Both the position numbers and the translations under genes were made by a program. Of a stretch of 64,000 nt of DNA, positions 2,830-41,757 are shown piece by piece. The DNA comes from Escherichia coli. GTDB lineage: Bacteria > Pseudomonadota > Gammaproteobacteria > Enterobacterales > Enterobacteriaceae. The stretch lies in the NCBI RefSeq assembly GCF_009931435.1, contig NZ_CP043414.1; one strand, given 5' to 3'. A model generated the notes under the pieces. That model did no database searches. It was not told where the DNA came from and saw only the letters and a list, made by a program, of their open reading frames with translations. The stretch's first letter is position 1. Each line of letters opens with the position of its first letter.

Positions 2830-3846
2830 TTAATCATCCGGCGTCAGTTCGCCGCGCAGGTTTTGGCTCATGGCCTTGCGAATGGTTTCAGTATCCAGTT
2901 CCTGGCTAAGCAGGTAATGCAGTTTGGTTAGCGTGGCTTCTACAGTCATATCTGCACCGCCAATAACGCCGGCATGGGCGAGGGCGTTACCAGTGGCATA
3001 ACCCCCCATGTTCACTTTGCCGGACATACATTGTGTCAGGTTGACTACCACAATTCCGCGATCGCTGGCTTCTTGTAATTCTTGCAGGAAGGCTTTGTTT
3101 TGTGGCGCATTACCCACGCCATATGAGCGCAGAATCAATGCCTTCACCGGTTGGCGCAGAAAATTGCGCACGACGTCAGCAGAAATCCCTGGATAAATCG
3201 TCACTACGCCAATCGGTTGTGGGGTGATTGGATGAACGATCAATTCCCCTTCACCGTGCGGGGCGGGTGGCGTATTCAAACGACGAATATGGATACCTGC
3301 TTCCAGTAACGGAGGAAGGTTTGGAGAGGCAAACGCATCAAAACCATCGGCATGGGCTTTGGTGGTACGGTTGCCACGATAAAGTCGATTATTAAAAAAG
3401 AGAGTTACTTCGTTGATAGGATAATTCGCCGCAACGTACAACGCATTCAGCAGATTAATTTGTCCGTCAGAGCGTAACTCAGCCAGCGGGATTTGTGACC
3501 CTGTCACAATGACCGGTTTACCGAGATTCTCGAGCATGAACGACAGCGCAGAGGCGGTATACGCCATCGTGTCGGTGCCGTGCAGAATGACAAAACCATC
3601 ATAGTCGTCATAATGCGCTTTAATATCTTCAGCAATATGCTGCCAGTCTTCTGGCGTCATATCTGAAGAGTCCATCAGCGGCGTATATTCATGAATGGTG
3701 AAATCTGGCATCTCCGGGCGATGGAATTCCGGCATCAGCGCCAGTTGGCGTTGTAGATGACCTGACACCGGAATATAACCCTGCTCGGAACGCTGCATCC
3801 CGATGGTCCCGCCCGTGTAGGCGACGTAAATTGATTTCTTTTGCAT
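2830..3846 (-). CDS. ansA: L-asparaginase I (cytoplasmic)
   Basis: 338-aa product MQKKSIYVAYTGGTIGMQ... Confidence 0.95.
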   Translation of the reverse strand: MQKKSIYVAYTGGTIGMQRSEQGYIPVSGHLQRQLALMPEFHRPEMPDFTIHEYTPLMDSSDMTPEDWQHIAEDIKAHYDDYDGFVILHGTDTMAYTASALSFMLENLGKPVIVTGSQIPLAELRSDGQINLLNALYVAANYPINEVTLFFNNRLYRGNRTTKAHADGFDAFASPNLPPLLEAGIHIRRLNTPPAPHGEGELIVHPITPQPIGVVTIYPGISADVVRNFLRQPVKALILRSYGVGNAPQNKAFLQELQEASDRGIVVVNLTQCMSGKVNMGGYATGNALAHAGVIGGADMTVEATLTKLHYLLSQELDTETIRKAMSQNLRGELTPDD

Positions 3847-10492: not shown

Positions 10493-10517
10493 TGCTCTGA
10501 TGCAGTCAGTTTTCGTA

Positions 10518-10548
10518 GGCCAGATAAGGCGTTCACGCCGCATCTGGC
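10518..10548. repeat. REP (repetitive extragenic palindrome) element
   Basis: ggccagataaggcgttcacgccgcatctggc matches the classic REP core; between convergent topB and gdhA. Confidence 0.6.
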
Positions 10549-10575
10549 ATAAACGCCTGAAACGGCGCTAATGAC

Positions 10576-11919
10576 TTAAATCACCCCCTGCGCCAGCATC
10601 GCATCGGCAACCTTCACAAAACCGGCAATGTTCGCGCCCTGCACGTAGTTGGTTTGCTCACCTTCACCACCATGCTCAACACAGGCATGGTGGATATCCA
10701 GCATGATGTGATGCAAACGTGCGTCAACTTTCTCGGCTTTCCAGCCCAGGCGCGCAGCGTTTTGCGCCATTTCCAGGCCGGATGTAGCTACGCCACCAGC
10801 ATTAGCCGCTTTACCCGGTGCAAACAGTACGCCTGCCTGCTGGAACAGTTCAGTCGCTTCGATGGTGGTCGGCATATTTGCCCCTTCGGCGACGGCTTTA
10901 ACGCCATTGGCGATAAGCTGATGCGCGGCGTCTACATCCAGTTCGTTCTGGGTGGCGCAAGGCAGGGCGATATCAACCGGTACAGACCACGGCTGTTGGC
11001 CTTCGAGATAGACCAGGCCAAATTCTTTGGCGTAATCTGCCACTCGACCATCGCGGCTGGCTTTGATTTCGATAAGACGTGCCAGTTTCTCTTTAGTGAA
11101 TCCGCTTTCATCAACGACAGTGCCACTGGAATCTGACGCAGTAATCACACGGGCACCAAATTCCATCGCTTTTTCGATAGCGTACTGAGCGACGTTGCCG
11201 GAGCCAGAAACGGAAACGCGCATCCCTTCAAAACCCATACCGTGGCGTTTTAGCATTGCTTCTGTGAAATAAACCAGACCGTAGCCGGTTGCTTCCGGGC
11301 GAATAAGACTGCCGCCAAAAGAAAGCCCCTTACCGGTGAAGACGCAGGCGGTATTGTTGGAGAGCTTTTTCATCATCCCCGCCATAAAGCCGACTTCACG
11401 ACCACCAACGCCGATATCACCTGCCGGAACGTCGGTATCCGCGCCCAGGTGGCGATACAGTTCAGTCATCAGGGCCTGGCAAAAACGCATCACTTCACCT
11501 TCGCTTTTTCCTTTCGGATCGAAATCGCTGCCACCTTTACCACCGCCCATCGGCAGGGTAGTCAGGGCATTTTTGAAGGTTTGCTCGAAGCCGAGAAATT
11601 TGAGAATGGAGAGGTTAACTGACGGATGGAAACGCATACCGCCTTTGTACGGGCCGATGGCGGAGCTGAACTGCACGCGCCATGCACGGTTGACCTGTAC
11701 CTGGTTGCGATCGTCAACCCATACCACGCGAAACTGGATCACGCGCTCCGGTTCAACCAGACGCTCCAGTAATGACATTTGGCGATATTTTGGATTTTGT
11801 TCAAGAAAAGGCCAGAGTGTGGTCATTACTTCACGAACGGCTTGCGCGAACTCGGTTTGATTCGGGTCGCGCTTTTGGACATGGTTGAGGAATGACTCCA
11901 GAGAATATGTCTGATCCAT
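10576..11919 (-). CDS. gdhA: NADP-specific glutamate dehydrogenase
   Basis: 447-aa product MDQTYSLESFLNHVQKRDP... Confidence 0.97.
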   Translation of the reverse strand: MDQTYSLESFLNHVQKRDPNQTEFAQAVREVMTTLWPFLEQNPKYRQMSLLERLVEPERVIQFRVVWVDDRNQVQVNRAWRVQFSSAIGPYKGGMRFHPSVNLSILKFLGFEQTFKNALTTLPMGGGKGGSDFDPKGKSEGEVMRFCQALMTELYRHLGADTDVPAGDIGVGGREVGFMAGMMKKLSNNTACVFTGKGLSFGGSLIRPEATGYGLVYFTEAMLKRHGMGFEGMRVSVSGSGNVAQYAIEKAMEFGARVITASDSSGTVVDESGFTKEKLARLIEIKASRDGRVADYAKEFGLVYLEGQQPWSVPVDIALPCATQNELDVDAAHQLIANGVKAVAEGANMPTTIEATELFQQAGVLFAPGKAANAGGVATSGLEMAQNAARLGWKAEKVDARLHHIMLDIHHACVEHGGEGEQTNYVQGANIAGFVKVADAMLAQGVI

Positions 11920-12154
11920 AGATATAAAACCCTTATATATTAATACGATTATGCTTATGTTGTTTATGTCATGTGCTTTTGCAGTTTTCGACTATACCAT
12001 CAAGAATGTGACGGTAAGCAAGAAAAAAATGACTCACGAAAGCAAATTAATAACGGGAGAAATCTCATAACCAAAAGCGATAACTCAGACGCTAAAGTTT
12101 TGCCGCCAGGCTACCGTTATCAGTAACAGAGACAAAAACGTTAAGGAGTTCCCT

Positions 12155-12427
12155 GTGAGTCGAGCATTGTTCGCCCTAGCATTGGCATTTCCATTCATTG
12201 CACTGGCTAACCCGCATTATCGTCCGGACGTGGAGGTAAACGTACCGCCTGAAGTATTCAGTTCAGGCGGGCAGTCAGCGCAGCCCTGTAATCAGTGCTG
12301 CGTCTATCAGGATCAAAACTATTCTGAAGGGGCGGTAATTAAAGCCGAAGGAATACTGCTGCAATGCCAGCGGGATGACAAAACTCTTGGCACTAATCCG
12401 CTGGTCTGGCGGCGCGTAAAGCCATAA
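12155..12427 (+). CDS. ynjH: DUF1496 small protein YnjH
   Basis: 90-aa product with signal-like N-terminus; GTG start after AAGGAG. Confidence 0.8.
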   Translation: MSRALFALALAFPFIALANPHYRPDVEVNVPPEVFSSGGQSAQPCNQCCVYQDQNYSEGAVIKAEGILLQCQRDDKTLGTNPLVWRRVKP

Positions 12428-12800
12428 ACGCCTTTAATAGTGGAATGTCAGCAGGGGCCAGCGGATATTGCAGCGCCTCTTCAGGTGAGCACCAGACCAG
12501 CGCCTGATGTTCATGTGCCTGTAACGTCCCGTGGAAGTGGGGTATGTGCCAGGCATGAAGATGGATAATCCGCCCCGAAACTTCTCGCTGATGGCTGGCA
12601 ACATACTCACCCACAGTTGCTTCGATGCCCAATTCTTCGCGTAACTCACGCACCAGCGCCTGCCGCTGGCTTTCATCCGGTTCGACTTTACCACCAGCAA
12701 ATTCCCATAATCCCGCTTGATCGCTATGCGTAGGGCGTTGCGCGATTAAAATTTTGTCATCCTGTTCGATGATGGCGGCAACAACATCAATCATTTTCAT
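12393..12800 (-). CDS. nudG: Nudix hydrolase (CTP pyrophosphohydrolase)
   Basis: 135-aa product with Nudix box GGKVEPDESQRQALVRELREELG; 3' end overlaps ynjH. Confidence 0.9.
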   Translation of the reverse strand: MKMIDVVAAIIEQDDKILIAQRPTHSDQAGLWEFAGGKVEPDESQRQALVRELREELGIEATVGEYVASHQREVSGRIIHLHAWHIPHFHGTLQAHEHQALVWCSPEEALQYPLAPADIPLLKAFMALRAARPAD

Positions 12801-12886
12801 AAATTACACACGGTCGAATACAGGAAAAATGCCATAATATCCGCAGTGTTGCTCAATCAGAAAGGCTTTATATTTAAGGAGTGCCT

Positions 12887-13507
12887 GTGTTAGACCGCCA
12901 TCTTCATCCCCGAATTAAACCTTTGTTGCATCAGTGTGTGAAGGTGCTGGATAAACCCGGCATTACGCCAGATGGTTTAACATTAGTGGGATTTGCCATC
13001 GGCGTGCTGGCACTGCCGTTTCTGGCGCTGGGCTGGTATCTGGCGGCGCTAATCGTCATTTTGTTGAACAGGCTGCTTGATGGTCTGGACGGCGCGTTGG
13101 CGCGGCGAAGAGGACTTACCGACGCGGGTGGCTTTCTCGATATTTCTCTCGATTTTCTTTTTTACGCACTGGTGCCTTTTGGGTTTATCCTCGCCGCACC
13201 GGAGCAAAACGCGCTGGCAGGCGGCTGGCTGCTGTTTGCGTTTATCGGCACGGGCAGCAGTTTTCTCGCTTTTGCTGCGCTGGCGGCGAAACATCAGATT
13301 GATAATCCCGGTTATGCGCATAAATCGTTTTATTATCTGGGCGGGTTAACCGAAGGCAGCGAGACGATTTTGCTGTTTGTTCTGAGTTGCCTCTTGCCAG
13401 CTTATTTTCCGTGGTTTGCGTGGGTATTTGGTGCGTTGTGCTGGATGACGACCTTTACGCGGGTGTGGAGTGGGTATCTGACGCTGAAGTCGCTCCAGCG
13501 CCAGTAA
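12887..13507 (+). CDS. ynjF: CDP-alcohol phosphatidyltransferase family membrane protein
   Basis: About 206-aa hydrophobic product, DGxxAR motif; GTG start 6 nt after AAGGAG. Confidence 0.85.
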   Translation: MLDRHLHPRIKPLLHQCVKVLDKPGITPDGLTLVGFAIGVLALPFLALGWYLAALIVILLNRLLDGLDGALARRRGLTDAGGFLDISLDFLFYALVPFGFILAAPEQNALAGGWLLFAFIGTGSSFLAFAALAAKHQIDNPGYAHKSFYYLGGLTEGSETILLFVLSCLLPAYFPWFAWVFGALCWMTTFTRVWSGYLTLKSLQRQ

Positions 13508-13515
13508 TTGCAATG

Positions 13516-14823
13516 TTATTTGCTGCTGTCCGGGCCGCGCTCACCGGTTGCTACGGGATTTTTCGGATCGCTGCTCCATTCGTACCAGCCGCCGTCGTAA
13601 ACGGAGACGTTATTCCAGCCCATTGCTCGTGCGTACATAAAGGTTTCGGACGCGCGCCAGCCGGTGCCGCAGTAGAATGAAACTTGCTGATCTGGTTTGA
13701 TATTCCATGCTTTCCACATAGCGGCAATATCATCGGCGCTACGCATGGTGCCATCCGGGTTATGGAAATCCTCCATATGCGTCGAGTCGCTACCAGCGTG
13801 TCCCCAACGGGCTCCGGCTATTTCACCTTTTGGCTTAATATAGCTGTAACCACTGGTCGTACCGATAAATTCTGGCCACGAACGAATGCTCACCAGCGAT
13901 GCATCCTGGCGATGCAGCAGCCCACGGGCCTGTTCCATATCAAGCATCAACTGCGGTTGCGCCGGGATCTTCACGCCGAAATCCGGTTCAGCTTTCACTT
14001 TCGGTGGCGTTCCGCGCTCAACAGGCAGTCCCGCGTCGGACCAGGTTTGCCAGCCGCCGTCCAGCAGGCGCACATCTTTCACCCCTGCATAGAGCATAAT
14101 CTGTGCTACACGCGCTGCTGCGTATACATCACGACCATATAGAATCACCGTGGTGTCATGACGAATGCCATGCTTTGCCAGCATCGCTTTCAGTTGTTCA
14201 TCAGAGACTTTATTCCACAGCGGTTCGCTTTCCACTTCATTGGTATCGATGTAATCCGCGCCGGGAATATGGCTGATAAGGTAAAGCTTAGGAGCGCCCC
14301 AGGCCGCTTCAATGACTTTCCAGTCACCGGCAGGTTTCGCCGTAACCTCTTTACCCTGTTGCAGGTCATGCAGCCATTGCGGATAAACCAGCTGCTCAAA
14401 GTGCGGCAGTTTTTGCAGACGGGAAGGTTCGCTTAGCGCGTCACTCAGGATGGAGATATGCGTAAAACCTGCTTTTTGCAGTCGCGTTTTGACGGCGTCG
14501 ACATCTTTGTCATTACCGTACAGCGCCACCGGAGCGTCGGTTTTCAGGTTATGTTGCTTGATCCACGCGTTGAGCTGTTCGGTGCTCATTTTGTCGAGCC
14601 AGCTAGCAGAGAGGTTTAAGGCGGCAGGTTCATGACCGGAAGGGCCATTTAAGGTTTGTGGCCAGCCGTTATAAAACGCGCTGGGGCGAGTATCTATCGC
14701 TTTGCCATTTTGTTGTTGAAGCTGGTCAAGAGTAAGAGGCTTCGCCAGTTCAGCGGCCCACGAAGAAGCGCAAGCCAGCCCTAAAGCCATTGCCAGCGCG
14801 GTCATTTGAGAAACACGTTTCAT
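13516..14823 (-). CDS. ynjE: Thiosulfate sulfurtransferase (rhodanese-domain protein)
   Basis: 435-aa product from MKRVSQMTALAMALGL... (signal peptide). Confidence 0.9.
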   Translation of the reverse strand: MKRVSQMTALAMALGLACASSWAAELAKPLTLDQLQQQNGKAIDTRPSAFYNGWPQTLNGPSGHEPAALNLSASWLDKMSTEQLNAWIKQHNLKTDAPVALYGNDKDVDAVKTRLQKAGFTHISILSDALSEPSRLQKLPHFEQLVYPQWLHDLQQGKEVTAKPAGDWKVIEAAWGAPKLYLISHIPGADYIDTNEVESEPLWNKVSDEQLKAMLAKHGIRHDTTVILYGRDVYAAARVAQIMLYAGVKDVRLLDGGWQTWSDAGLPVERGTPPKVKAEPDFGVKIPAQPQLMLDMEQARGLLHRQDASLVSIRSWPEFIGTTSGYSYIKPKGEIAGARWGHAGSDSTHMEDFHNPDGTMRSADDIAAMWKAWNIKPDQQVSFYCGTGWRASETFMYARAMGWNNVSVYDGGWYEWSSDPKNPVATGERGPDSSK

Positions 14824-29274: not shown

Positions 29275-30775
<1,501 letters not shown>

Positions 30776-40938: not shown

Positions 40939-41754
40939 ATGAGGTGGGAGATGTTTTCTACAAACTTAATACAGAGTGATTATGGTAATTTAAATATTAA
41001 AAACCTTGCCTTCGACTCTTTTAAAGAAAGGCTGCAGTCTACCATGACAGCACTCACTTTCTTTATATCAACGGGTCAATGTGCCTGCGATGAAATAGCA
41101 GAATCAAACTTCAATTATATGATTACCTATATGTCTAACATTAACTATGATGCCTCAAAGCCAGGAGCGCCAGCACTTAGTTTTGATACATATCTGCAGG
41201 ACAATGTTAAATATAGAGTGATAATTAATAATCTTTATGGTAGTGAAATTAGGATAAGAGGTATTAATGAGAATTTTGTTGGGATGGATTTTACCTGTGA
41301 ATTCCGACCAGAAAAAATGACCAATTTGATCAATATAAAAAACAGGTTGGTTATTCAGTATTTAAGAACGATATACTATGAACAAAATTATATACATCCT
41401 GTTGGGAGCATTTTTGCTGCGATTCAAAAAAATGAGAGTCTCCTAAAGTTTCCTTCGGTAATATCAATGCTTAATGTCAATCTTCTTTTTAATCCACTGA
41501 ATCTTCCGGGAATGGGAAGTGGTGTGCTTGAAGAGATTATGAGTATTTCAGATAGTTCACTTAGAAAACGTCTTGGGTATGAGGTTTTAAGTTTCTCACT
41601 ACAAGCACATTCATTGAGTCAGGAATGTATTGATAAGTTAGCCATTTTTTTCGCTGACGATCTGTTTAAATATGAGTCAGTATGCATCGCCGCGATGGAA
41701 CATTTAAAAAGTAAGGCAACGGCCCCTATACAAAACGGACCGTTGCCAGCATAA
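40939..41754 (+). CDS. ydjO: Uncharacterised protein YdjO (AT-rich gene)
   Basis: 271-aa ORF; visibly AT-rich with AT-rich upstream region. Confidence 0.8.
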   Translation: MRWEMFSTNLIQSDYGNLNIKNLAFDSFKERLQSTMTALTFFISTGQCACDEIAESNFNYMITYMSNINYDASKPGAPALSFDTYLQDNVKYRVIINNLYGSEIRIRGINENFVGMDFTCEFRPEKMTNLINIKNRLVIQYLRTIYYEQNYIHPVGSIFAAIQKNESLLKFPSVISMLNVNLLFNPLNLPGMGSGVLEEIMSISDSSLRKRLGYEVLSFSLQAHSLSQECIDKLAIFFADDLFKYESVCIAAMEHLKSKATAPIQNGPLPA

Positions 41755-41757
41755 GAA

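Follow-up and report, generated by a model that had tools for sequence, protein, structure and literature searches.

The conserved convergent overlap of ynjH and nudG in Escherichia coli: constraint from one reading frame and asymmetric antisense transcription

The convergent genes ynjH and nudG share 35 nt of coding sequence (12393..12427, both strands) in the window, that is, the whole 64,000-nucleotide stretch of Escherichia coli DNA analysed here. The arrangement is a genuine overlap, most probably ancient and passive but obligatory, shaped by one-sided constraint and accompanied by transcriptional read-through, with no dedicated function and an effect on NudG that is modest at most. The overlap itself is already known, annotated and published: Fig. 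1 of the GWIPS-viz 2018 paper shows the "overlapping genes nudG and ynjH", with Ribo-seq signal on both strands. The present analysis adds its conservation across the family, the restriction of the constraint to the ynjH frame, the codon-level cause of the 35-nt and 41-nt variants, and the link between a FliA promoter and asymmetric antisense transcription.

The plus-strand gene ynjH (12155..12427; GTG start, TAA stop at 12425-12427, 90 aa) encodes a DUF1496 protein (Pfam match over residues 33-89, E 3e-24) and is FliA (sigma-28)-dependent according to the literature; its product has a hydrophobic N-terminus that may represent a putative signal peptide. The minus-strand gene nudG (12393..12800; ATG start, TAG stop at 12393-12395, 135 aa) encodes the CTP / 5-hydroxy-CTP pyrophosphohydrolase, a NUDIX hydrolase (Pfam match with E 1e-21, residues 5-124). 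NudG aligns from end to end, over all 135 residues and with the overlap-encoded tail included, with PDB 2RRK, the solved CTP pyrophosphohydrolase of E. coli. The shared segment specifies YnjH residues 80-90 and the stop on the plus strand, and NudG residues 125 (in part) to 135 and the stop on the minus strand, so that in both the sequence and the list of open reading frames each stop lies inside the opposite coding region. The placement of the ynjH stop 35 nt inside nudG, proposed by the first-pass annotation, is exact by coordinates and agrees with RefSeq, which annotates the same overlap in strain 2020CK-00188 (100% identical to the window) and an identical 35-nt overlap between b1759 and b1760 in K-12 MG1655. 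A reassigned start or stop that would remove the overlap, named there as the refuting case, is not possible: both C-termini are set by frame and homology, and the overlap survives any change of the ynjH start because it is the frame that determines the stop. Support for both frames as real genes comes from Pfam matches above the cut-offs, from 2RRK and from orthologues in 80 loci.

Convergent coding overlaps of this kind are not rare, as indicated by two overlapping pairs among the nine convergent pairs of the window (spacings of -41, +8, -35, +83, +92, +52, +40, +3 and +46 nt) and by the 75 or so convergent overlapping pairs annotated in E. coli (75 in Huvet & Stumpf 2014, PMC4161906). The ynjH/nudG pair resembles those pairs in consisting of real opposite-strand genes whose stops are mutually internal by tens of nucleotides, and nothing essential differs; it is set apart by the family-wide documentation of the overlap and by a constraint that comes from one frame, which makes it a clean teaching example in which one frame carries all constraint.

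The conservation of the overlap was assessed in one genome per species, scanned with NudG as the query, which yielded 80 loci; the frames were extended to their stops before the overlap was measured. A ynjH homologue converges on nudG in 77 of the 80 Enterobacterales loci, and the two genes overlap in every one of the 57 Enterobacteriaceae loci that carry both. The length ranges from 23 to 44 nt, with 41 nt in 29 loci, 35 nt in 18, 38, 44 and 26 nt in three each, and 23 nt in a single locus. Outside this family, in Serratia, Yersinia and Erwinia, most loci have either 3-30 nt between the two stops or an overlap of 8-12 nt, with Y. ruckeri (50-nt overlap) as an outlier. In the three loci without ynjH, NudG stops 6-9 residues past the conserved (A/S)(F/Y)I motif, and a different gene converges there. 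The flanks are considerably more variable: the Buttiauxella and Cedecea loci lack gdhA beside ynjH, nudG has no neighbouring ynjF in Salmonella, Kosakonia and Atlantibacter, and both are missing from the flanks in the Serratia, Yersinia, Erwinia and Mangrovibacter loci. Since the flanks change and the pair persists, the tail-to-tail pair predates its neighbourhood and is the more stable of the two. Collectively, the conservation of the overlap is far above chance, and its mere existence is statistically ordinary. Distant DUF1496 homologues, sought to date the pairing outside Enterobacterales, did not appear among the matches listed, which comprised close relatives only.

The one locus with a sizeable gap between nudG and ynjH is that of Serratia sp. 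H1w (L058, ~2948..3047), where 100 nt separate the genes. This gap holds an apparent G+C-rich hairpin, judged by eye (…cccctctcccggtgggagaggg…), which could be an inserted repeat or a terminator; such an element would mean that the pair tolerates a spacer.

The selective pressure on the shared bases is readily apparent from the column entropies over the 57 loci. Within the overlap, positions 1, 2 and 3 of the ynjH codons have values of 0.33, 0.23 and 1.01, the same pattern as in the ynjH-only flank (0.48, 0.44 and 1.33), while the nudG-only flank shows the nudG periodicity and reaches 1.53 at the third positions of nudG. In the shared segment, conservation is highest at the nudG third-position sites and variability highest at the nudG second-position sites, which is the opposite of what nudG coding would predict. 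At the protein level, the loci carry 16 variants of YnjH residues 80-90 (TNPLVWRRVKP), compared with 45 of NudG residues 125-135. The C-terminal YnjH motif GTNPL(V/I)W (GTNPL[VI]W.R...), which lies inside DUF1496, is kept out to Yersinia and Erwinia. The constraint on the overlap is thus one-sided: it is exerted through the ynjH frame, as the end of DUF1496, and the NudG tail is loosely constrained.

In the AlphaFold model of NudG (41 orthologues, pLDDT 92.9), the final helix spans residues 118-130 and residues 131-135 have low pLDDT; past the last helix NudG ends in a short, variable and probably disordered tail. Its sole highly conserved residue, A131, is encoded by the reverse complement of parts of the YnjH Trp85 and Arg86 codons. 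The nudG stop itself is read from the ynjH Thr80-Asn81 codons (ACT AAT; 12392..12397, plus strand), whose reverse complement contains the TAG. Thr80 is encoded by ACT in 18 of 18 loci with a 35-nt overlap and by ACC, ACG or ACA in 29 of 29 loci with a 41-nt overlap, where NudG is two codons longer. Because the reverse complement of ACT together with the next base gives TAG, the position of the nudG stop is set by a synonymous codon choice in ynjH.

These features suggest the simplest route by which the overlap most likely arose. Stop-codon movement has been proposed as an origin of convergent overlaps (PMC4161906), and in the ancestor of the Enterobacteriaceae the spacer and the ancestral NudG tail would have been lost, with the nudG frame running on to the next available stop. 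The nudG stop would thereby have been displaced into ynjH, and the run-on would have added the end of the last NudG helix and a short tail. The 35 bp are held by ynjH as the conserved end of DUF1496, and the nudG frame reads their reverse complement until a stop is met.

The absence of any space for terminators between the two genes, noted in the first-pass annotation, is borne out: the spacer is zero, and no terminator-like hairpin is present in 11800-13000 on either strand, with none on the plus strand before 13041. Consequently, since the stops are mutually internal and no intrinsic terminator is nearby, transcription of either gene has to pass through the shared segment. The predicted RNA folding around the overlap is no better than that of shuffled sequences on both strands (z -0.5 and -0.2), and Rfam gives no match for the overlap region at E<=1; a structured RNA or terminator at the overlap is ruled out by the terminator scan, the fold z-scores and the Rfam search. 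The pair can be compared with the bidirectional intrinsic terminators described by SEnd-seq (bioRxiv 10.1101/2022.10.23.513370), which likewise end convergent units, and polymerase collision is a candidate contributor at nudG-ynjH. Those terminators, however, are stem-loops between genes, G+C-rich and with A/U tracts, whereas nudG-ynjH has neither intergenic space nor a terminator-like hairpin. A separate feature, spotted by eye, is a putative 11-nt inverted repeat (~12399-12410 and ~12492-12505).

Further downstream, the ynjH-sense RNA is C-rich and G-poor at 12568-12727 (C/G 1.9-2.5), and this composition suggests a stretch that could serve as a candidate Rho loading site on untranslated RNA. 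The ynjH RNA is probably ended by Rho-dependent termination or by processing. The supplements of Adams 2021 and TRS 2023 contain no mapped nudG or ynjH 3' ends, and the proposed Rho-dependent end is read from the base composition.

With regard to initiation, a candidate sigma-28 promoter of ynjH is located at 12093..12120 on the plus strand, with TAAAGTTT at 12093-12100, a 12-nt spacer and ACCGTTAT at 12113-12120. It ends 34 nt upstream of the GTG and matches the class 3 sigma-28 promoter (TAAAGTTT-N11/12-GCCGATAA-like) in orientation and spacing and at 13 of 16 positions. The sense-strand motif TAAAGTTT-N12-ACCGTTAT is conserved at the same position across the loci of Escherichia, Citrobacter and Salmonella, and variants of it can still be recognised in Kluyvera and Kosakonia. 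A different FliA motif had been assigned to ynjH in Table 2 of Fitzgerald 2014 (12116..12143, minus strand). The sense-strand motif is preferred because it is conserved, whereas the published one is antisense to ynjH, directed toward gdhA and restricted to close E. coli relatives. FliA dependence is consistent with published measurements: the RNA-seq signal of ynjH falls from 29 units in motile wild-type MG1655 to 2 in the delta-fliA strain, and FliA ChIP places ynjH among the targets with a ChIP score of 1 (PMC4183435). The Salmonella orthologue STM1300 is also transcribed by FliA.

Antisense read-through, as expected by the first-pass annotation, is seen in published strand-specific RNA-seq (Huang et al. 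2020, PMC7373196 Table S1c), and the pair is listed as a convergent excludon (PMC12288877). Its mutual character stands only in part: read-through is present, but it is far greater from ynjH into nudG than from nudG into ynjH, and "mutual" is too strong a word. In the wild type, nudG has 8.99 RPM sense and 45.36 RPM antisense, a five-fold excess of antisense, and ynjH has 79.97 RPM sense and 2.69 RPM antisense (PMC7373196). The corresponding sense/antisense values in the RNase III mutants are 3.81/29.19 (rnc-14) and 5.58/16.99 (rnc-38) for nudG, and 78.97/0.94 (rnc-14) and 27.40/2.48 (rnc-38) for ynjH. At the full ynjH density the 35 shared bases would account for ~10 RPM of the antisense signal; the ~35 RPM that remain fall on the 373 nt of nudG outside the overlap, about a third of the per-base density of ynjH. 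These values indicate that ynjH RNA extends far into nudG, and that nudG RNA enters ynjH weakly. The predicted untranslated 3' extension of the ynjH transcript (12428..12800, plus strand) would be antisense to the body of nudG, where the published antisense reads fall; part of this signal could also come from an internal promoter. Furthermore, p19-captured dsRNA, composed of RNase III fragments, was recovered on nudG at 6-35 RPM (PMC7373196), which indicates that sense-antisense duplexes form.

The passive reading accommodates these observations as follows. Transcribed harder from its conserved sigma-28 (FliA) promoter, ynjH would yield an RNA running for hundreds of nucleotides antisense to nudG, and read-through from nudG into ynjH is weak. 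The sense-antisense duplexes form and are then cut by RNase III. It is plausible that NudG is lowered by this antisense read-through, though any such effect would probably be modest. As most reads over nudG are antisense, estimates of nudG expression need strand-specific data.

The excludon concept reportedly derives from the mogR/flagellar-gene excludon of Listeria, associated with the names Toledo-Arana (2009) and Sesto (2013), and the nudG-ynjH pair is similar in that one partner belongs to the flagellar regulon. It also resembles the convergent excludons catalogued more recently, in which the transcripts of opposite-strand neighbours overlap and the dsRNA is cleaved by RNase III; ExcludonFinder (2025) reports 165 of them in MG1655, in at least half of 58 transcriptomes, including nudG-ynjH, ynjE-ynjF and cho-ves (PMC12288877). 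For nudG-ynjH the transcript overlap follows from the coding overlap, and antisense reads are published. Classical excludons differ in that they combine overlapping UTRs with reciprocal expression and opposed functions, whereas nudG-ynjH overlaps in its coding sequences with no evident functional opposition and is described here as a candidate regulatory excludon. The mscL-arfA pair of E. coli is likewise convergent, with complementary 3' regions, and is on the excludon list; a regulatory effect of its antisense RNA has been reported (PMC10070815), and nothing comparable was found for nudG-ynjH.

On this basis, the strongest alternative to a passive overlap is a selected one, in which FliA-driven antisense RNA from ynjH lowers NudG, through collision and/or RNase III, and thereby links nucleotide-pool sanitation to the late flagellar programme. 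We regard this as possible but unlikely. The listing of the pair in the MG1655 convergent excludome, the five-fold antisense excess and the capture of dsRNA fragments on nudG all speak for it, as does the likewise overlapping pair of a second sigma-28 gene, ves, and the repair gene cho, with the same read asymmetry. The persistence of the pair and of its sigma-28 motif despite changing neighbours may also mean that the arrangement is selected and not neutral, and excludons as a class, on whose list the pair stands, show higher synteny than other neighbours. However, the neutral expectation is also that an abutting pair is kept, because it offers almost no target for a rearrangement breakpoint. 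In addition, nudG sense reads do not increase in either of the two RNase III mutants, rnc-14 and rnc-38 (PMC7373196), among FliA targets ynjH is expressed weakly (29 units versus 2319 for fliC) and its deletion has no motility phenotype (PMC4183435), and nudG is not mentioned in the text and examined supplements of the FliA regulon study (PMC4183435). A passive overlap is therefore preferred to a selected one.

The second overlapping pair of the window, cho (minus strand) and ves (plus strand), shares 41 nt of coding sequence at 29887..29927, ~17 kb from nudG-ynjH. According to published reads, cho has 7.9 RPM sense and 19.2 RPM antisense, and ves, which is FliA-dependent, has 156.7 RPM sense and 4.7 RPM antisense. 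Although the proteins differ, the two pairs are alike in that the stronger partner is FliA-dependent and the weaker one carries more antisense than sense signal. In each case the gene with the weaker expression serves mutation avoidance or repair. An improbable generalisation would be that FliA read-through from small "non-flagellar" sigma-28 genes restrains mutation-avoidance genes by a conserved antisense effect (ynjH on nudG, ves on cho); it is suggested by the overlap in both pairs, by the excess of antisense over sense reads on the repair gene and by the survival of nudG-ynjH beyond its neighbours. If true, nucleotide-pool sanitation and repair would be lowered in the late flagellar programme. 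The overlap would gain in importance only with proof that nudG is silenced in a FliA-dependent way, and cho likewise by ves.

A much less likely possibility is a noncontiguous operon, in which the ynjH transcript would continue through nudG and the 86-nt spacer into ynjF (12887..13507, plus strand) and the two plus-strand genes would be co-transcribed. The +/-/+ topology of ynjH, nudG and ynjF would permit this, and so would the plus strand, which has no terminator-like site before 13041 and gives substantial antisense coverage over nudG. Nevertheless, this arrangement is absent from the three noncontiguous operons reported by ExcludonFinder (PMC12288877), ynjF is not next to nudG in many genera that retain the overlap, the main text of the FliA study contains no mention of ynjF, and the C-rich stretch at 12568-12727 suggests that Rho would stop the untranslated RNA earlier. 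Finally, an annotation artefact, in which one frame is mis-called or truly ends elsewhere, could be suspected from the small size, unknown function and GTG start of ynjH, yet it is ruled out for practical purposes by a stop codon that no start change moves, by the YnjH C-terminus conserved to Yersinia and Erwinia within DUF1496, by the full-length match of NudG to 2RRK and by the Ribo-seq signal that GWIPS-viz shows on both strands.

The overlap calls for a practical caution: any change engineered into the 3' end of ynjH also changes NudG, and the reverse holds too. The primers of the published ynjH::thyA deletion end within the overlap.

Several minor features of the surrounding region were also observed. 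The genes gdhA, ynjH, nudG, ynjF and ynjE are five single genes on alternating strands, and ynjF (plus) and ynjE (minus) converge with an 8-nt gap (13507..13516), this pair being a listed convergent excludon. Tight packing is found elsewhere in the window as well, where tcyP and a gene for a hypothetical protein converge 3 nt apart (41754..41758 region; record 297325/297329). K-12 carries ynjI between gdhA and topB; this gene is missing from the window, where the gdhA-topB spacer measures only 83 nt (10493..10575). For an E. coli allele, the adjoining block, 10576..14823, is unusually divergent: only one of 5426 complete genomes has at least 99% identity over 11900-12900. The nucleotide identity to K-12 is 97.5% for gdhA, 95.3% for the spacer with ynjH, 94.9% for nudG, 90.5% for ynjF and 95.6% for ynjE. 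None of the representatives of other Escherichia species is closer to the block, so the allele may be either old or imported.
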